Assembly: GCA_039738415.1 (NCBI GenBank) | Contig: JBCLLY010000001.1 | Location: 1-51,620, forward strand | DNA from: Candidatus Levyibacteriota bacterium | GTDB lineage: Bacteria > Patescibacteriota > Microgenomatia > Levybacterales > GWA1-39-11 | Direction of reading: 5' to 3' | Length of the DNA stretch: 51,620 bases | Shown: positions 2,844 through 51,620 of the stretch, piece after piece | How positions within the stretch are numbered: position 1 is the first letter of the stretch | Layout of the letters: every line of letters starts with the position of its first letter | Position numbers and translations under genes: made by a program | Notes under the pieces: model-generated | Told to the model about the DNA's origin: nothing | The model's database searches: none | What the model saw: only the letters and a program-made list of their open reading frames with translations

Positions 2844-2955
2844 TGGTGGGTGATCTTGGGATCGAACCCCACACATCTTGCCGTTCGCCTTTATGCACTA
2901 TTCGTGCACGGCTCACGGAGCGATTTGTGCGGGGCAGGCCAAGTACCTGTTCTTA
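2844..2955 (-). pseudogene. tRNA-like 3' fragment whose T-loop is split by a 72-nt insert
   Basis: Minus strand reads TAAGAACAGGTA-CTTGG-[72 nt]-TTCGATC-CCAAG-ATCACCC-A-CCA, i.e. anticodon-stem 3' strand, variable loop, T-arm, acceptor 3' strand and an encoded CCA. CTTGG/CCAAG pair across the insert. No matching 5' half lies adjacent. Confidence 0.5.
2867..2938 (-). ncRNA. unassigned conserved hairpin motif, copy 1 (RNA or folded ssDNA)
   Basis: CCTGCCCCGCACAAATCGCTCCGTGAGCCGTGCACGAATAGTGCATAAAGGCGAACGGCAAGATGTGTGGGG. Shares identical blocks of 15 and 11 nt and the same fold with 51271-51339. Compensatory changes occur in two helices. Confidence 0.45.
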
Positions 2956-2972
2956 CCGTGCCCTCCGCCTCC

Positions 2973-3098
2973 GGGCTGCAAACTGTTGTGGGCTGCCTAG
3001 GAATCGAACCTAGTACCTCTTTCTTACCGTGCCCGACTGCCACGGGGCTGCAAACTGTTGTGGGCTGCCTAGGAATCGAACCTAGTACCTCTTTCTTA
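2973..3098 (-). repeat. two exact 54-nt direct repeats (2973-3026 and 3045-3098, period 72 nt)
   Basis: Each repeat equals tRNA-Ile positions 36-73 plus 16 nt of 3' trailer. Character-by-character comparison of the two stretches. The upper copy is part of the intact tRNA-Ile gene. Confidence 0.95.
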
Positions 3099-3132
3099 TC
3101 AGGAAAGCGTTCTACCAATGAACTAGCAGCCC
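3061..3132 (-). tRNA. tRNA-Ile (anticodon GAU), no encoded CCA
   Basis: GGGCTGC-TA-GTTC-ATTGGTA-GAAC-G-CTTTC-CTGATAA-GAAAG-AGGTA-CTAGG-TTCGATT-CCTAG-GCAGCCC-A folds into a perfect 72-nt cloverleaf. Confidence 0.95.
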
Positions 3133-26413: not shown

Positions 26414-27205
26414 ATGGAACCTATAAATAACACTCTTCAAGGAAATTTTCCGCCAGAAAATCCTGTTAGCACGGATATTCAAGCAAATCAATCTACCCAA
26501 ACCCACCCAACAAATACTACAAAAAGAAATAATCTAGGAAAAATAATAAGCATCATAATTATTCTAATTTTATTATCTGTATCTGGAGTTGCCGGATATT
26601 TTATTTATAAAAATTTAAATCAATCAAACCCTGAACAAGTCGCTTGCACTATGGAGGCGATGATTTGTCCTGATGGAAGTAGTGTGGGGAGAAGCGGTCC
26701 CAACTGTGAATTTGCTCCTTGTCCAAAATCAGAATCAACCTCAACACCTGATACCTGGCAAACCAAGTCCATCTCCCAAATAAGTCTTTCGTTTAAATAT
26801 CCACAGGACTGGGAAGAAAAAAAGACAGCTACAGGAGGAGTTGTATTGATAGGGCCCAAAGATAATGAAACTACTTGGATTGGCATCAATGATTCAACTT
26901 ATATAAATCTTGGCGATACTCCAGAAAAATTATCTGAGCAAGCGCTTGGGAATGAAACCCCAACGGGAAAAAAACAAATAACGATAGATGGACATAATGC
27001 TGTTTACCAAGAAAGGCGCTATCTAAATAGTGCAAGAATTGAAGTTTACATTGGAGAGGTGAAACAAATGACTAACTTTGCAGAAGGACCTAGATTAACA
27101 AACGGAACCCAAAGTGTTTTCATGGAGATCAAAGACTTAAGCGAACTGGATTCAAGTAGAAAAATTTTCGACCAAATCCTCTCCACCTTTCAGTTTACTA
27201 ACTGA
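26414..27205 (+). CDS. membrane-anchored surface-protein family member (C-terminal ILSTFQFTN)
   Basis: 263 aa: polar N-terminus, one TM (IISIIIILILLSVSGVAGYFIY), extracytoplasmic domain, family C-terminal motif. Confidence 0.8.
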   Translation: MEPINNTLQGNFPPENPVSTDIQANQSTQTHPTNTTKRNNLGKIISIIIILILLSVSGVAGYFIYKNLNQSNPEQVACTMEAMICPDGSSVGRSGPNCEFAPCPKSESTSTPDTWQTKSISQISLSFKYPQDWEEKKTATGGVVLIGPKDNETTWIGINDSTYINLGDTPEKLSEQALGNETPTGKKQITIDGHNAVYQERRYLNSARIEVYIGEVKQMTNFAEGPRLTNGTQSVFMEIKDLSELDSSRKIFDQILSTFQFTN

Positions 27206-27254
27206 CCCGCCAAAGATCGCTCTTCAAGTCGTGTTCGAATAGAACTGAAAAGAC

Positions 27255-27443
27255 TTGAAGCAAGATCAGGAGGGCAAATTCACTGATCAACGACCACCTG
27301 GTGGACAATATTCAACCGAAGGACAATCTTGTGGGAAAAATGCTGGAGCTGCAGGAGATGCACAATGTGAACCAAGCCTTACCTGTGTATACCAAAGCGA
27401 GGAGGCAATACAAAATAAGATAGGTACCTGTCTTAAAAAGTAA
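27255..27443 (+). CDS. possible small Cys-rich peptide (4 Cys); coding status uncertain
   Basis: 62-codon ORF with a TTG start and no Shine-Dalgarno. An identical copy at 30670-30837 lacks any start codon. Confidence 0.25.
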   Translation: MKQDQEGKFTDQRPPGGQYSTEGQSCGKNAGAAGDAQCEPSLTCVYQSEEAIQNKIGTCLKK

Positions 27444-27603
27444 AAATTAATAAGATTTCTTCTCAAAGTGATCTTTCAGAATGTCGCGGGTTATGGGTCC
27501 GGCGATTGACAACTTGATCTTATTCGTGAATACTAATCAAGTGGATAATCAAAATTCTAATCAAACTCAGACGGTTGAAAACGCTTTGCCTCAGCCTCCG
27601 GTT
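27274..27603 (+). repeat. 330-nt duplication, copy 1 (copy 2 = 30668-30997)
   Basis: Aligned by eye over the full length; one mismatch seen (27580 a versus 30974 g). Confidence 0.95.
27506..27534 (+). promoter_or_regulatory. family promoter, leaderless layout
   Basis: TTGACA-N17-AATACT, then 6 nt to the GTG at 27541. Confidence 0.55.
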
Positions 27604-27888: not shown

Positions 27889-29171
27889 AGAAAATACCTA
27901 TATTCATATTTTTGTGCATCTTTATGATTTTGGGTTCACAGAAAACCGAAGCAAAAATACTCAGTAAAGAGCTTATAAAAAAAGCGGTAATTGAATATGG
28001 TACCAGGGAGGAATTTTGCATTATCCCAAACCCTCTACTGGCCAATGAATTCCTTAGCCAACCATTAGAGTTAAGTGATGGTTATGATACTCCAAATACC
28101 GGATCGGAAATCACTGAAAAGGATTGCAAGCCAAATAGTAATACTGAAATAATTTTTGGGTATGTCCGCTTAGATTTTCTGGATTCTTTCAATGCACCCC
28201 CTGCTTATGAGAAAATTTTCCTATTTGATGATAAGATTTTGCGCCCTGATTCTATTGGATATGAGTACTATAAAAATTTTGACCCCAATTCTCAATCTAA
28301 CAAAGATATATTTTTGGGGAAGGCAGTTGGGCAAAAATCAATCAGAGCAACCATTTTACACTGGACGGATCCTTCGTTCCCATATGGTCAAAAGACTCTT
28401 CACGATAACGGATTTGTCATAACATTTGATAAAAATGGGGAGAGAGAAAAACTTTTCTTTATCTATGATGGAAATGTCTATTTATCAACAAAAATATTAA
28501 AAGAAATTCGAGAAGATATAGTACTTGTGGATTATACACAAAATGAAACTTCCCCCACTCCCGACCCCGCGGTCACGGGCACGGGCACCACGACAGGCTC
28601 TACTTTCGGCGGCCAGCCCGATAGTAACCCTGGCAGTGGAAATGAATGGGTACAGATTCCTGGCAGCAATAATCAGTGGAAAGCGCAGCCCATCGGCACA
28701 GGCACTCAGCCGCCCCCTCTCACCGCCGATTGGAAAACATTTGTAAATAAAAAATATAATTATTCAATAAAATATCCTACTTCTAGGTTTAATAACTGTT
28801 GGACCGATAAATTTGTATTGCATACAGGCAATGAAAAAACATCAGAATGCTTTGCAGGAGAAGACAGGCCAATTTTTTCAATCGTAAATTCCCTCGATGG
28901 CACTGGTAAATTTAAAACCCCAGAATATCCCCAATGTTATATTGTCCAAGTAGAAAATATCACTCTTAATAACGTCGCTGGGAAAAAATACTCAAATAAA
29001 TCTATCAGCGATAAAGAAAGTTGCAATAAAAATACTGAAGCATACTACTCGTTGAATACTGTAAATATTGTCCTTTACAAAAACGGCTCACCATACAACA
29101 TAACTTATAGGGGAGATTTTGAACCTGAGCTTCTCAATACAATCCTCTCCACCTTTCAGTTTACTAACTGA
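27885..29171 (+). CDS. secreted protein with the family C-terminal motif (ILSTFQFTN)
   Basis: 428 aa. Signal peptide MKKIPIFIFLCIFMILGSQKTEA. The ATG overlaps the upstream stop (ATGA). Confidence 0.8.
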   Translation: MKKIPIFIFLCIFMILGSQKTEAKILSKELIKKAVIEYGTREEFCIIPNPLLANEFLSQPLELSDGYDTPNTGSEITEKDCKPNSNTEIIFGYVRLDFLDSFNAPPAYEKIFLFDDKILRPDSIGYEYYKNFDPNSQSNKDIFLGKAVGQKSIRATILHWTDPSFPYGQKTLHDNGFVITFDKNGEREKLFFIYDGNVYLSTKILKEIREDIVLVDYTQNETSPTPDPAVTGTGTTTGSTFGGQPDSNPGSGNEWVQIPGSNNQWKAQPIGTGTQPPPLTADWKTFVNKKYNYSIKYPTSRFNNCWTDKFVLHTGNEKTSECFAGEDRPIFSIVNSLDGTGKFKTPEYPQCYIVQVENITLNNVAGKKYSNKSISDKESCNKNTEAYYSLNTVNIVLYKNGSPYNITYRGDFEPELLNTILSTFQFTN

Positions 29172-29206
29172 CCCGCTTCTGGGGGGAAAATTTCACAAAA
29201 TAGTTA

Positions 29207-30667: not shown

Positions 30668-30997
30668 GCAAATTCACTGATCAACGACCACCTGGTGGAC
30701 AATATTCAACCGAAGGACAATCTTGTGGGAAAAATGCTGGAGCTGCAGGAGATGCACAATGTGAACCAAGCCTTACCTGTGTATACCAAAGCGAGGAGGC
30801 AATACAAAATAAGATAGGTACCTGTCTTAAAAAGTAAAAATTAATAAGATTTCTTCTCAAAGTGATCTTTCAGAATGTCGCGGGTTATGGGTCCGGCGAT
30901 TGACAACTTGATCTTATTCGTGAATACTAATCAAGTGGATAATCAAAATTCTAATCAAACTCAGACGGTTGAAGACGCTTTGCCTCAGCCTCCGGTT
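30668..30997 (+). repeat. 330-nt duplication, copy 2
   Basis: See 27274-27603. Confidence 0.95.
30900..30928 (+). promoter_or_regulatory. family promoter (duplicate), leaderless layout
   Basis: TTGACA-N17-AATACT, then 6 nt to the GTG at 30935. Confidence 0.55.
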
Positions 30998-33100: not shown

Positions 33101-33136
33101 TGCAACCATTTCGTCCATATGGTGAAATTTGTTGCA
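33101..33136. promoter_or_regulatory. 36-nt imperfect palindrome, copy 1 (candidate operator)
   Basis: TGCAACCATTTCGTCCATATGGTGAAATTTGTTGCA, centred on CCATATGG. Confidence 0.5.
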
Positions 33137-33169
33137 ATCGCAACAAATTTCAATTACGATTTATTTGCC

Positions 33170-33820
33170 ATGAGGAAAAAAACGTCTGACATTATTTCTG
33201 ATGAACAAATCAAACATCTTGGAATTCTTCTCTTTCAAAAAATAAAGCTTGAAAAAGAGGATATACAAAACGCAAAAATAAAACATGTATTAACGCTTAT
33301 TGCAAAAGCGGGAACAGTTGCGGTGATGCTTACTGCTCCAAACACAGCATTGCTTGCAAGGGAGCTTTTTGAAGATAAGAAAGATTTTAGAATCTGGAAG
33401 CAATTTAACGAAAGATTGCTAAGACAGAATTTAAAAAGACTTGCCAAGCAAAAAATTATAGACATTTCCCAAAAAAACGGCAATCAGATAATAAAGATTT
33501 CAGAGAAAGGAAAAAGGAAAATCCTATCCTATGTAATTGATGAACTAATGCTTAAAAAACCTACTAGGTGGGATGGCAAGTGGCGACTAGTAACGTATGA
33601 TATTCCTGTAAAAAAAAGTCGTAAAGACAAGATAATAAGCAACACTCTTAAAAGACTTGGTTTTTTTAAAATTCAAAACAGTGTATATATTTCACCCTAC
33701 CCTTGTTTTGATGAAATCGAATTCATGAGAGAATATTATTTTTTGGGTATGAATATCAAATATTTTATTGTTACGAAAATAGAAGACCAAGAAGCATACA
33801 GGACTTACTTTGGAATTTAG
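33170..33820 (+). CDS. PaaX-like regulator (winged-helix N-terminus, Cas2-like-fold C-terminal domain)
   Basis: WDGKWRLVTYDIPVKKSRKDKIISNTLKRLGFFKIQNSVYISP is the PaaX-C / Cas2-fold pattern. The track start at 33119 lies inside the palindrome, so I prefer the ATG at 33170. Confidence 0.7.
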   Translation: MRKKTSDIISDEQIKHLGILLFQKIKLEKEDIQNAKIKHVLTLIAKAGTVAVMLTAPNTALLARELFEDKKDFRIWKQFNERLLRQNLKRLAKQKIIDISQKNGNQIIKISEKGKRKILSYVIDELMLKKPTRWDGKWRLVTYDIPVKKSRKDKIISNTLKRLGFFKIQNSVYISPYPCFDEIEFMREYYFLGMNIKYFIVTKIEDQEAYRTYFGI

Positions 33821-40359: not shown

Positions 40360-40427
40360 ACCGTATATGATAATTGAGATTTGAAAATAAGTCAACGCTT
40401 CAAACGCGAAACATAATAAATCAACGA

Positions 40428-40559
40428 TTGAAGCTCCCACGACCTTACGGTCGGGGAATCAGCAAAACGCTTCGTCGAGCGCAAATCCGCCGAAGCGGAA
40501 AATCACTCTGCATCCCACCTGACTTACATCCAGGGAATTTTGCGAAGGCGGATTCAAAC
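40428..40559. repeat. hairpin-module repeat, long version (the short version is 45244-45295)
   Basis: TTGAAGCTCCCACGACCTTACGGTCGGGGAAT ... TTGCGAAGGCGGATTCAAAC, with an 80-nt extra block (40460-40539) bounded by GGGAAT on both sides. Confidence 0.8.
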
Positions 40560-40600
40560 GTTTCAACAGCGTTTAAATTGCAGAGCAATTTATTACGCTG

Positions 40601-40673
40601 CGCCAGTGAGAGGAGTCGGACCTCCAACCTTTCCCTTAGGACGGGACTGCTCTATCCATTGAGCTACACCGGC
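40601..40673 (-). tRNA. tRNA-Arg (anticodon CCU) with a non-canonical T-loop
   Basis: GCCGGTG-TA-GCTC-AATGGATA-GAGC-A-GTCCC-GTCCTAA-GGGAA-AGGTT-GGAGG-TCCGACT-CCTCT-CACTGGC-G. The cloverleaf is good except for C55, G32 and a 27:43 mismatch. Confidence 0.8.
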
Positions 40674-45201: not shown

Positions 45202-45243
45202 ATAATAACACTAAATTGAATTGAAATCCTTCAAGCAGGAATA

Positions 45244-45295
45244 TTGAAGCTCCCACTACCTTACGGTTGGGGAATTCCGCGAAGGCGGATTAAAC
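45244..45295. repeat. hairpin-module repeat, short version
   Basis: TTGAAGCTCCCACTACCTTACGGTTGGGGAATTCCGCGAAGGCGGATTAAAC, directly 3' of the M16 peptidase stop. Confidence 0.8.
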
Positions 45296-49478: not shown

Positions 49479-50184
49479 CTAGGGACAATTAAGGTAATAA
49501 TCAAACACTTCCTTAGGTGTTTTAAAGTTAAGACGTTTTCTGGGTCTGTTGTTAAGTTCCCATTCAACATCTCTTAACTCTTCATCAGTGATTGTACTAA
49601 AGTCAGTTCCTTTAGGAAAGTAGCATCTGATAAGTCCATTTGCATTTTCATTACCTCCTCTTTGCCAGGAGGAGTATGGATCTACAAAATATGTTGGTAT
49701 TCCAAATTCTTTATGTCTTACATGTTCTGAACCATTATCAAGTGTTACTGTTCTCTTAGCATGGGGAGGAAGATGACTAAAGATCTTATTTACTGCAAGT
49801 ACTGTTTCAAAAGAGTTGATTCTCTTTATATATTCCAACCTTGTTTTACTTGAAACCCTCTCGTACTCAGTGTGGAGTCCTGAGGTGTGACCTTTACCTA
49901 CAATACTGTCTCCCTCCCAGTGACCAAATTGTATTCTTCTTTCAACAATTTTTGGTCTTGAATGTATTGATACTCTATCCGGTATTCTAACTCTCTGTGC
50001 TTTTCTTCCTACCTTTTTCCCAAAGCTCTTTTATCTCAGGATTTTCGTCGTAAATTTGTTTGTTTAATCGTTGAATTTCTTTCTTCGCCTCATCACTATT
50101 TTCAAACTCGGTTGCACCATAAGCATCAGCTAAATCTTCCGTAGCTAAATTTTGAGTTTTGTCCACCAGCTGGCTCCGATTCAA
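49479..50184 (-). mobile_element. IS30-family transposase remnant (5'-truncated, frameshifted)
   Basis: IPDRVSIHSRPKIVERRIQFGHWEGDSIVG...TLDNGSEH...PYSSWQRGGNENANGLIRCYFPKGTDF...LNNRPRKRLNFKTPKEVF is the IS30 DDE domain. The frame is open to 50030 without a start codon. The HTH part is absent, and the upstream 65-aa ORF is in another frame. Confidence 0.75.
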
Positions 50185-50260: not shown

Positions 50261-50290
50261 TGTGTATCATATATCGATATATGATACACA
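50261..50290. repeat. perfect 30-nt palindrome TGTGTATCATATATCGATATATGATACACA
   Basis: Self-complementary. Shares the arms TATCATATAT / ATATATGATA with 26314-26335. Confidence 0.9.
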
Positions 50291-50349: not shown

Positions 50350-51231
50350 CTAATCCAACCGGAGTTCTTTCAGGAATTTCCTAAATTCTCCATTTAACGC
50401 AGGGTGCTGGAGGGCAAATTCGACTACTGTCTTCATATATTCAAGTTTTGACCCCGTATCATAGTACTTTCCATTCTCTATCTCTACTCCATACACGGGC
50501 ACACCTTCATCACGAAGTTTATTTATCGCATCAATCAGCCAAATCTCCCCGCCTTTTCCGGGTCCAATATTTTTTAATGCTCCAAAAATTTCAGGCGGTA
50601 AAATATACGCTCCATGCGTTGCCATATTCGACGGAGCATGCTCGGGATCAGGCTTCTCAACAATTTCTTTAATTCTAAAAACATTACCTTCAACTGTTTC
50701 GATATCAGCAATTCCATAGCGCTTGAGGTCTTCTTTGTTCTCTATCCTTACACCGGAAATAACTATTCCTCCGTACTTGTCGTATACATCAATCATTTGC
50801 TTCAAGCGCGCGGGCTTTGAATAAATAAATTCATCTCCCCAAAGAACTGCAAATGGTTCGTTTTCTATTACCGGTTCTGCCGCCAAAACAGGTGTTCCAT
50901 TTCCATACGGACCTTTTTGTCTAACATAAATAAAATTTGCCAACTCTGAAATCTTTTGTACTTCCTTAAGCATTTCTTCTTTTCCACCGTCTTTAAGATT
51001 TTTCACTAAATCTTGATTTAGAACGTCGAAATGATCCTCTATGGCACGCTTTAGCGCACCCGTAACAATAATAATATCTTCAATTCCGGATTCAACCGCC
51101 TCTTCAACTACGTATTGGATAACCGGTTTATCAACTACAGGAAGCATTTCTTTGGGCATGGCCTTTGTTTGGGGGAGAAACCGGGTTCCAAAACCAGCAG
51201 CGGGAATTACAGCTTTACGGATTTTAGTCAT
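50350..51231 (-). CDS. galU: UTP--glucose-1-phosphate uridylyltransferase
   Basis: VIPAAGFGTRFLPQTKAMPKEMLPVVDKP motif; a GGAGGG Shine-Dalgarno 7 nt upstream of the ATG. Confidence 0.93.
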   Translation of the reverse strand: MTKIRKAVIPAAGFGTRFLPQTKAMPKEMLPVVDKPVIQYVVEEAVESGIEDIIIVTGALKRAIEDHFDVLNQDLVKNLKDGGKEEMLKEVQKISELANFIYVRQKGPYGNGTPVLAAEPVIENEPFAVLWGDEFIYSKPARLKQMIDVYDKYGGIVISGVRIENKEDLKRYGIADIETVEGNVFRIKEIVEKPDPEHAPSNMATHGAYILPPEIFGALKNIGPGKGGEIWLIDAINKLRDEGVPVYGVEIENGKYYDTGSKLEYMKTVVEFALQHPALNGEFRKFLKELRLD

Positions 51232-51380
51232 ATAAACCCTCCGAATTAATACTATCTATAAAAACAGCTCGCCCGCCAGTAATTGCTCCGTGAGCCGTGT
51301 ATGAATAATACTTTAAGGCGAACGGGAAAATGCGGCGGGAACCAGCAGCGGGAATTACAGCTTTACGGATTTTAGTCATA
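51192..51380. repeat. 41-nt exact direct repeat (51192-51232 and 51340-51380) bracketing a 107-nt insert
   Basis: Each repeat is the galU start (1 nt upstream of the ATG plus the first 40 nt of the CDS). Compared base by base; offset 148. Confidence 0.95.
51271..51339 (+). ncRNA. unassigned conserved hairpin motif, copy 2
   Basis: GCCCGCCAGTAATTGCTCCGTGAGCCGTGTATGAATAATACTTTAAGGCGAACGGGAAAATGCGGCGGG; same fold as 2867-2938. Confidence 0.45.
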
Positions 51381-51566
51381 AATTTATTATCAAATATTTA
51401 TAGTTCTATACTCTATATTCTATACTTGATACGCAATACTATTTTTAAATTGTAGTTTGTGTTGTCTACATTGTCAATCCGTTGTCATGTCTCCCCATAA
51501 TCCCACTAAATCCCCCAACTATTTACTCTTTGCATTCTTAGGCTAAGCTGTGGTAAAATTAGCACT

Positions 51567-51620
51567 TATGTTGAGCTTCTTGACTGAAGTTAAAAATGAA
51601 CTGTATAAGGTAACGTGGAC
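51567..51620 (+). CDS. secE: preprotein translocase subunit SecE, 5' end only
   Basis: MLSFLTEVKNELYKVTW matches the conserved SecE N-terminal pattern (FL.EV..EL.KV.WP). Runs off the window. Confidence 0.55.

Follow-up and report, generated by a model that had tools for sequence, protein, structure and literature searches.

In a 51,620-nt stretch of the genome of a Candidatus Levyibacteriota bacterium (GenBank assembly GCA_039738415.1, contig JBCLLY010000001.1, positions 1 to 51,620; hereafter the window), the start of galU, the gene for UTP-glucose-1-phosphate uridylyltransferase, is present twice, as an exact direct repeat of 41 nt on either side of a 107-nt insert that contains a hairpin. 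On balance, we favor the reading that this repeat marks a filled insertion site, where a hairpin block was inserted near the galU start and the native start was left behind as a decoy. The hairpin itself represents a widespread, covarying structured family that is absent from Rfam and from the literature searched.

A duplicated galU start around a hairpin

The repeat, AACCAGCAGCGGGAATTACAGCTTTACGGATTTTAGTCATA, lies at 51192–51232 and 51340–51380 with a period of 148 nt and is far above chance when compared with controls from the same locus (z = 30); an exact 41-nt repeat bracketing a 107-nt insert with the motif, as described in the original prediction, is thus confirmed. On the minus strand, each copy is composed of a T, the ATG and the next 37 nt of galU. 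The proximal copy (X′) reads on into the 293-aa open reading frame (ORF) of galU, the product of which belongs to the Pfam family NTP_transferase and has 6426 homologues, and the distal copy (X) opens a decoy ORF of 51 codons, instead of the 49 counted previously, with its stop placed 5–7 nt within galU. The insert (51233–51339) consists of a linker (38–39 nt) and one copy of the hairpin (68 nt), namely P1a (CCCGCC/GGCGGG), P1b, P2 (CCGU/ACGG), a tandem GA/GA loop, P3 (GCC/GGC) and the P4 hairpin; in the linker, CCCTCC at 51237–51242 is the reverse complement of the Shine–Dalgarno (SD) sequence GGAGGG. The insert had been credited with both a promoter and this SD sequence. The latter stands, but our consensus scan detected no promoter-like site inside the insert, and a strong, near-consensus one (51477→51449, minus strand) is located upstream of the decoy copy (Table 1).

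The window derives from a metagenome-assembled genome (MAG), and an exact repeat of 41 nt is k-mer-like in length, as would be expected if two strain variants of the galU upstream region had been merged via a shared k-mer. The chance of such an artefact is nonetheless negligible, because the same architecture was found in other species; indeed, homologous filled alleles occur in independent JGI, Logan and NCBI assemblies. Furthermore, the junction-spanning 51-aa ORF is recorded on two contigs of different length, the GalU protein cluster being found on contigs of 52.6 kb and 133.8 kb. The 41-nt repeat around the insert is real and not an artefact.

Table 1. Features at the galU start and at the other hairpin copies of the window
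Feature	Position	Strand	Description	Basis
galU (UTP-glucose-1-phosphate uridylyltransferase)	50350..51231	−	functional ORF, 293 aa	ORF list, Pfam, homologues
Repeat copy X′	51192..51232	−	first 40 nt of the galU coding sequence plus 1 upstream nt, joined to the gene body	sequence
Linker of the inserted block	51233..51271	−	carries SD GGAGGG	
Hairpin copy 1	51272..51339	+		covariance model match 51268–51343 (77.1 bits), family covariation
Repeat copy X	51340..51380	−	displaced native galU start, decoy ATG 51379–51377, touches the 3′ foot of the hairpin	collinear with empty allele L182
Upstream ORF	51224..51379	−	51 codons: decoy ATG, reverse complement of the hairpin, stop inside galU	ORF list
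Native promoter-like site	51449..51477	−	TTGACA-17-TACAAT, 11/12 matches	common to empty and filled relatives
Divergent secE start	51568..51620	+	nusG-rplK-rplA follow past the window end	SecE, NusG, L11 and L1 Pfam matches in L001 and relatives
Hairpin copy 2	2867..2934	−	downstream of and co-oriented with tRNA-Ile	covariance model match 2863–2938 (82.6 bits)
Displaced tRNA 3′ fragment	2844..2866	−	T loop, 3′ strand of T-stem, 3′ strand of acceptor, ACCA; touches the 3′ foot of copy 2	sequence
Hairpin copy 3	27206..27274	+	P2/P3 compensatory variant	covariance model match 27202–27278 (61.7 bits)

Empty and filled galU sites among relatives

The galU upstream regions of related genomes were compared, as the original prediction had suggested, and both empty and filled sites were found. 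Among 80 metagenomic galU loci (46–80% aa identity), the hairpin is present only in L111 and L131, with a variant in L110, and all galU insertions in this set come after the IPAAG codons. A nearest-relative test for the native copy was uninformative in this metagenomic set, synonymous sites being saturated, and the question was settled with closer relatives. The closest ones (85–90% aa identity) have the same synteny (nusG-secE <> galU-argS); the site is empty in L173–177, L180–183 and L185 and filled in L178/L179 and L184. In the empty locus L182, TTGACA-17-TACAAT and a 56-nt AT-rich leader are followed by ATGACTAAAATC..., which leads directly into galU. Because L182 is collinear with the promoter, leader and decoy copy of the window, and L178/L179 and L184 are homologous to the window through the leader, X, the hairpin and the linker start, the distal copy X of the window is in the native position, and the hairpin, the linker and X′ are the inserted block.

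In terms of expression signals, an SD sequence precedes the real start in 4/6 filled alleles versus 9/46 empty ones, and the remaining two filled alleles have a −10 box in the linker; the linkers of L088, L111 and L178 carry a −10 box of their own. In L178 and L184, the repeat begins only from codon 3, and the ATG of the gene is inside the linker (MSNSKIRK...). Going by these motifs, the linkers carry expression signals, namely an SD sequence in the window and a −10 box or even a start codon elsewhere. An element just inside galU that provides a replacement 5′ end, as originally proposed, is supported by the empty and filled relatives, their shared promoter and synteny, and the SD-led starts typical of filled alleles; the supply of a promoter is the part of that proposal that did not hold. 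The linker end nearest to the hairpin, CGAGCTGT (reverse complement of 51264–51271), is kept in the galU-linked copies of the window, L035, L111, L131 and L178, and the linker of L184 starts with CGAGCTGC, which has one mismatch to it.

Alternatively, a hairpin already present upstream of galU might have provoked slippage or template switching and thereby duplicated 41 nt without any mobility. The exact identity would suit such a recent local event, and all three hairpin copies of the window adjoin exact or near-exact repeats. We regard a purely local rearrangement as highly improbable, however, since the empty L182 joins promoter and leader straight to the gene with neither hairpin nor linker, distant filled alleles share the insertion codon and the linker start CGAGCTGT, and the polar gene-end layout is found again at unrelated genes; L182 and the recurrence of the layout thus contradict a mere local tandem duplication with no link to the motif, an outcome that the original prediction had also envisaged.

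The filled state of galU is old and inherited, because the gene bodies of the window and L178 are diverged (22% different, with 49% identity at third positions), their P1 stems differ by a compensatory change (CCCGCC/GGCGGG in the window and CCCACC/GGTGGG in L178), and the two repeat copies are not identical in the orthologous alleles. Indeed, X and X′ agree at 29/33 positions in L178 and at 22/33 in L184, where X contains 39 additional nt in frame and has Ser in place of a Pro. The perfect identity in the window, which reaches over TATGACT, is hence not a mark of fresh integration, given that the orthologous filled alleles are non-identical, and seems best explained by recent gene conversion between the copies. 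An MTK versus MSK N-terminus was considered as a marker of conversion, but MTK also occurs in empty alleles, which weakens it. In L178, a homologous upstream ORF of 42 aa has been called.

A widespread, covarying hairpin family

A second copy of the hairpin, near tRNA-Ile, was first picked up by blastn-short, and the shared core CCGTGAGCCGTG...AAGGCGAACGG gave 90 matches in species-representative genomes. Approximately 87 of these are in Microgenomates-type Patescibacteria, often several per genome, and the hosts comprise Levy-, Gottesman-, Roizman-, Curtiss-, Ames- and Blackburnbacteria as well as mislabelled MAGs. We fetched 85 Patescibacteria loci, which together with the window make 86, and a covariance model trained on 88 copies found 99 copies in these 86 loci, including the three in the window.

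The hairpin is a rod composed of P1a (CCnCC/GGnGG, the consensus of the hairpin foot), P1b, an internal loop (GCU/UAAG), P2 (CCGU/ACGG), a symmetric tandem G·A loop and P3 (GCC/GGC), beyond which are an A-rich asymmetric loop and then the P4 hairpin with a GAAUA loop; its interior is invariant and mostly paired. In the family alignment, 93% of cells are paired with compensatory changes at 20/22 pairs, and the covariation score is 0.42 versus 0.14 for shuffles and ≤0.07 for slid partners, the alignment having been fitted to the model and hence leaning towards it. Copy 3 of the window and L111 are compensatory P2/P3 variants, and the stems of the three window copies, like those of copies from single MAGs, all differ from one another. 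In 98% of copies, the strand as written has a better fold than the complementary one, and G·U pairs outnumber A·C combinations in P1a (40 vs 7). The left neighbour gene is on the strand opposite to the hairpin in 44 cases versus 27, an orientation that is biased yet mixed. When Rfam 15 was searched, only rRNA and tRNA were hit in the window and nothing at the three motif copies; scans of both motif regions, at the gathering threshold and at E ≤ 10, were likewise empty. Neither the core sequence nor the topic was matched in the literature searched.

Several other identities were considered for the hairpin. Replication-strand specificity was ruled out, as GC skew is uniform while copies occupy both strands, and promoter position was dropped as a strand test, −10-like boxes being enriched on both strands. 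A tmRNA or tRNA-like gene around copy 2 is unsupported by ARAGORN and Rfam. The class-b copies are not followers of the 16S 3′ end (CACCTCCTTT); rRNA genes are absent next to them, and the tracts in question are SD sequences in reverse complement. The tandem G·A loop, as read off the alignment, is symmetric and without a 3-nt bulge, so it does not make a K-turn.

In L110 (1–528), galU has the duplicated-start layout around a divergent hairpin (P2 CCTCGTG/CACGAGG, apical GAGGC-TGTAA-GCCTC, UAAG retained), which was missed by the covariance model; the family is therefore broader than the model. Many copies also have a second hairpin, TAGAAACnC-TTAACGA...GAGTTT-GnGTTTCTA, directly 5′ of the motif (about 45 nt 5′ of it; L004, L006, L007, L009, L011, L029, L030, L032, L045, L054, L056, L067, L072–L074, L081 and L086). 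Its stem covaries by eye (CTC/GAG, TTC/GAA, CAC/GTG and CGC/GCG); RNAalifold made no consensus-fold call for this class-b 5′ hairpin, owing to indels, and the covariation is by eye only. The arrangement suggests that the 5′ hairpin and the motif form a two-domain unit of approximately 125 nt. In L004 (76–1501, minus strand), tRNA-Ser, 5′ hairpin and motif occur twice in succession before a terminator, and tRNA-Arg, 5′ hairpin, motif and tRNA-Ser are found further on, all co-oriented; processing of the tRNAs would release the motif RNA from this array. In L057 (3747–4018, minus strand), the 5′ end of a 16S rRNA gene is preceded, at distances of about 40 and 240 nt, by two tandem hairpins antisense to this gene. 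The unrelated loci L069 (1690–1750), L089 and L024 share a conserved GGCGATGCTCTTTTTTTG (boxA-like GCTCTTT) and a variable hairpin 5′ of the motif.

Gene ends are duplicated around the hairpin

A duplication of the flank was detected at p ≤ 0.005 in 14 of the 84 testable copies, against 0.4 expected. In all duplicated loci, the copy X starts 0–2 nt past the 3′ foot of the hairpin; the source segment X′ ends 8–38 nt ahead of the 5′ foot and is always the terminal segment of the neighbouring functional gene. In the sense of the hairpin, therefore, the order is invariant: gene body, X′, linker, hairpin, X and outside flank. The duplicated segments are 5′ ends, antisense to the hairpin, at galU (window, L035, L111, L131, L178 and L184), pth (L014, L040, L046 and L083), a tsaD-like gene (L065), a miaB-like gene (L022) and mreB (L082), and 3′ ends, in sense, at rpmG/L33 with its stop codon (L047) and at tRNAs (window copy 2 and L028). 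Identity runs touching the hairpin are 41, 20, 11, 11, 9 and 8 nt long, and some pairs share just 2–4 nt. Linkers are gene-specific, those of pth sharing TA-CA--CTATTT and those of galU CGAGCTGT. Intragenic sites are confined to the first or last ~17 codons, and the tRNA fragments start at anticodon-loop or T-loop positions, which Williams reportedly described in 2002 as typical of integrase crossover sites in tRNA genes.

The displaced copies have diverged in the manner of coding sequence. Of the 73 differences between X and X′, 17, 5 and 51 fall on codon positions 1, 2 and 3, respectively (P = 7.6e-8 under a uniform distribution, and P = 0.008 if just half the changes arose in an unconstrained copy), and the changed codons comprise 45 synonymous ones and 14 conservative replacements. 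In L069 (1987–2200, minus strand), a 37-nt flank duplication around the hairpin, exact in its first 20 nt, concerns a segment that is non-coding (on the opposite strand, GGGTCGGGTGGATCGTTGG...) and might be where an RNA that has escaped annotation starts.

The position of X invites comparison with guide RNAs: an RNA read from the plus strand, with the hairpin as its scaffold and the flank behind it, might work in antisense or as a guide, directed at the galU start or, in homing, at empty alleles, with a protein encoded elsewhere as its partner. The constant offset of 0–2 nt is that of ω-RNA/guide layouts, the plus strand is the better-folding one, the flank in the window is perfectly complementary to the galU start over 41 nt, and guide-RNA systems exist in bacteria of the candidate phyla radiation (CPR) (PMC12045711; bioRxiv 10.64898/2026.09.09.750476). 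We nonetheless consider this role improbable. Complementarity to the start is not conserved, with mismatches at 7/8 third positions in L131 and only 12/21 identical positions at pth of L040, and the flanks at tRNAs and rpmG are sense copies. Moreover, the consensus scan detected neither a promoter on the plus strand ahead of the hairpin nor a terminator past the flank, no effector gene is nearby (2.5 kb around the 99 copies), the hairpin interior is invariant unlike the spacers of tigRNAs, and no Rfam scaffold family matches. The antisense or guide role that had been put forward as an alternative is thus not borne out as a general property.

A host regulatory module is another explanation, in which the hairpin, either when read along galU or as a small RNA transcribed divergently, regulates housekeeping genes, the decoy upstream ORF opens the hairpin and couples to the real start, and the duplication is kept since the device needs it. 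In agreement with this, the hairpin is deeply conserved with in-situ compensatory change between orthologous copies, P1 often supplies or adjoins the SD sequence, housekeeping genes are associated recurrently along with one 16S leader, and the arrangement persists although a 41-nt repeat should permit easy deletion. An upstream ORF that passes through the hairpin and ends at or overlaps the real start was found in 14/55 loci, which also means that coupling by upstream ORFs was rejected as a family-wide feature. Nevertheless, such a module seems rather unlikely to be the explanation: G·U over A·C in P1a (40 vs 7) and the purine-rich loops favor folding of the strand antisense to the genes, orientation to the neighbours is mixed (44 vs 27), and the element follows the gene in sense at tRNAs, rpmG and copy 3 of the window. 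The linkers of L088, L111 and L178 have their own −10 box, and the hairpin therefore need not be in the mRNA. Most close relatives, furthermore, have galU without the hairpin, and the target genes have no common pathway. Regulation and insertion are compatible, as an inserted element may have been domesticated.

A possible course of insertion

In the insertion reading that we favor, galU would originally have begun directly after its own promoter and leader, and a block of ~148 nt, in which the hairpin and a short linker are followed by a repeat of the initial galU codons, would have been inserted after codon 13. Transcription from the native promoter (51477→51449) would now cover the leader and the decoy start and continue across both the hairpin, in reverse complement, and the linker, and GalU would be translated from GGAGGG of the linker and the second ATG. 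Ribosomes that initiate at the decoy would translate 51 codons through the hairpin and stop just inside galU, and may hold the hairpin open as in translational coupling. Gene conversion would keep X and X′ alike and expose changes in the displaced copy to selection, which could account for the perfect identity in the window and for the coding-like evolution of displaced copies.

More generally, the hairpin elements would be mobile now or formerly, inserting within ~50 nt of gene ends and duplicating the end with trans-acting machinery. Such a non-autonomous mode is suggested by the polarity, the end-reaching duplications, the restricted sites, the gene-specific linkers, the start positions of the tRNA fragments and the patchy distribution, and survivorship would retain only those insertions that leave the gene intact. 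As a speculation to which we attach limited credence, CPR bacteria could harbour a novel type of non-autonomous mobile element that has the hairpin at its core, brings portable expression signals and is spread by an enzyme encoded elsewhere, through a folded intermediate of single-stranded DNA or RNA; the copied flank would possibly specify the target for homing, and a structured nucleic acid plus a target copy would be the whole element.

Several observations weigh against insertion by a mobile element. No copies were found among 2.9 million viral contigs, and the surroundings of the 99 copies, searched over 2.5 kb, lack any recurrent gene for a recombinase, transposase, reverse transcriptase or guide-RNA effector. 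Within single genomes, the copies have diverged and give no hint of a recent burst; a duplication can be recognized in just ~17–27% of copies, its length (11 to >50 nt) is unlike that in any defined transposition mechanism, and no target or crossover consensus was seen at the block boundaries. In-situ compensatory changes in orthologous copies suggest selection on the resident copy and therefore a host function rather than pure selfishness. Both the direction and the reality of gene conversion, moreover, are deduced from three alleles only, and the statements on transcription and translation come from consensus scans.

Comparison with known systems

Integrase-type elements (phages, integrative and conjugative elements, and integrase-less derivatives of these such as cis-mobilizable elements), which enter the ends of tRNA or protein genes and leave att-site duplications that restore those ends, are similar in that direct repeats bracket the insert, a gene end is duplicated with the gene left intact, the displaced fragment is joined to the native flank, and empty and filled sites occur among relatives; the start positions of the tRNA fragments and the tandem 3′ halves of tRNA-Ile in the window are further likenesses. 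Indeed, direct repeats are found with a restored gene end at galU, which is intact, and likewise at pth, tsaD, rpmG and tRNAs. The insert is only ~110–150 nt here, however, with no integrase near any of the 99 copies and no phage-borne form; a phage-borne attP form was sought, and viral contigs gave no match. The repeats (11 to >50 nt) are often diverged, and a defined identical core is hard to discern, with long identity runs next to the hairpin in some pairs and just 2–4 shared nt in others, the sole constant being the ~70-nt hairpin across a superphylum-level clade.

Correia/NEMIS, ERIC, RUP, BOX and REP/BIME repeats are also small, multi-copy, long imperfect hairpins located by gene starts or ends, which are co-transcribed, can bear outward expression signals and are non-autonomous. 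Repeats of the Correia/ERIC type, nevertheless, are specific to a species or genus, with near-identical copies and short fixed target duplications, whereas the present copies are divergent within a genome and share a near-invariant core with RNA-like stem covariation across many candidate phyla, and the target duplications are long, variable and span gene ends. Miniature inverted-repeat transposable elements have terminal inverted repeats with a fixed short target-site duplication and many near-identical copies per genome; here, the P1 stems act as inverted repeats, the duplications range from 11 to >50 nt, and the stems all differ.

The attC sites of integrons are likewise imperfect hairpins (60–140 nt) that keep structure over stem sequence and fold strand-specifically, with the recombination point at the hairpin foot, where the duplicated flank begins in our loci. 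The foot of the present hairpin is CCnCC/GGnGG without RYYYAAC/GTTRRRY boxes, its apical part is invariant while that of attC is variable, and the cargo is a gene-end fragment, not an ORF; no intI, attI platform or array of ORF cassettes was seen in the 86 loci.

Guide RNAs, namely TnpB/IscB ω-RNAs, TldR guides and tigRNAs, also have a conserved structured part, directly behind which comes a variable stretch that matches a target nearby; a tandem G·A motif and CPR hosts are further common traits. In contrast to TnpB/IscB ω-RNA or TldR systems, there is no adjacent effector gene here, the scaffold is much shorter than ω-RNA, and Rfam gave no match at E ≤ 10; nor is complementarity between flank and target maintained. 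In tigRNAs, boxes C and D surround two variable unpaired spacers, and a Tas (Nop-domain) gene is nearby (PMC12045711; bioRxiv 10.64898/2026.09.09.750476). A TIGR-Tas guide RNA was rejected on architecture, the hairpin interior being invariant and mostly paired.

Leaders with translational coupling resemble the window in that an upstream ORF passes through a structured leader and ends over the main start codon, but here this ORF opens with a copy of the N-terminal codons of the main gene itself, only the subset with a duplicated start has one, and the frame is not conserved through the hairpin. The hairpin also differs from a cis-regulatory leader or riboswitch in its mixed orientation, its folding strand, which is mostly antisense, and its functionally unrelated target genes. 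Small non-autonomous insertion elements that spare their target gene are a known kind, and what is previously undescribed here is the structured core spanning a superphylum; a categorically new mechanism is a minority possibility.

The hairpin is hence a widespread, strongly covarying structured element of Microgenomates/Patescibacteria, new to Rfam and to the literature searched, and would represent a recurrent route by which essential genes (galU, pth, tsaD, mreB, miaB-like, rpmG and tRNAs) are split near their ends and still remain functional. Native leaderless or short-leader starts would be replaced by SD-led or newly promoted ones, and the annotation of gene starts in CPR bacteria is affected, given that decoy ORFs like the 51-aa one get called as genes. 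No transposition or integration mechanism defined so far fits the process of insertion or recombination to which the constant polarity, the duplicated gene ends and the coding-like evolution of the displaced fragments point; should its machinery come to light, this might turn out to be a novel system of recombination or retro-insertion, and possibly a usable tool. Since empty and filled alleles that share a promoter exist in nature, the influence of the element on expression can be tested directly.

Other hairpin copies and repeats of the window

Near copy 2, the region of tRNA-Ile (3060–3132, minus strand) contains two tandem units of 72 nt (2967–3026 and 3039–3098; 97% identical), each of which repeats the 3′ half of tRNA-Ile, beginning at the anticodon loop, together with 21 nt of the trailer. 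They are followed by a third such half, a diverged one, with the hairpin inserted between the 5′ strand of the T-stem and the T loop. The arrangement looks like serial att-type duplications.

Copy 3 begins at the stop codon of an ORF for a surface-protein paralogue (26414–27205) and is followed by a displaced frame that resembles a C-terminus. Its left flank (27175–27210) recurs exactly over 36 nt at 29141–29176, 1.9 kb downstream, and its right flank (27274–27573) exactly over 300 nt at 30668–30967, 3.4 kb downstream. The recurring flanks enclose a 1.5-kb block that encodes a PIN (VapC-like) toxin, preceded by a small ORF, and a further paralogue of the surface protein; homology breaks off at the edges of copy 3, and at 29170–29190 only a mini hairpin, CCCGCttctGGGGGG, is left.

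Between galU and argS, 1.4 kb from the hairpin copy, is a truncated remnant of an IS30-family insertion sequence, a 119-aa ORF (49479–49838, minus strand) that corresponds to only the C-terminal third of the transposases (NCBIfam NF033563, positions 175–267 of 267). A perfect 30-nt palindrome, TGTGTATCATATATC/GATATATGATACACA, is located at 50261–50290, ~60 nt past the galU stop. Elsewhere in the window, a 33-nt repeat, ATTGAAGCTCCCACGACCTTACGGTCGGGGAAT, with a small hairpin of its own unrelated to the motif occurs at 40427–40459 and 45243–45275 (94% identical), one copy being 140 nt from tRNA-Arg (40600–40673), and an ORF at 33119–33820 on the plus strand encodes a PaaX central/Cas2-like domain (Pfam PF20803 and PF09827) with no CRISPR array nearby.

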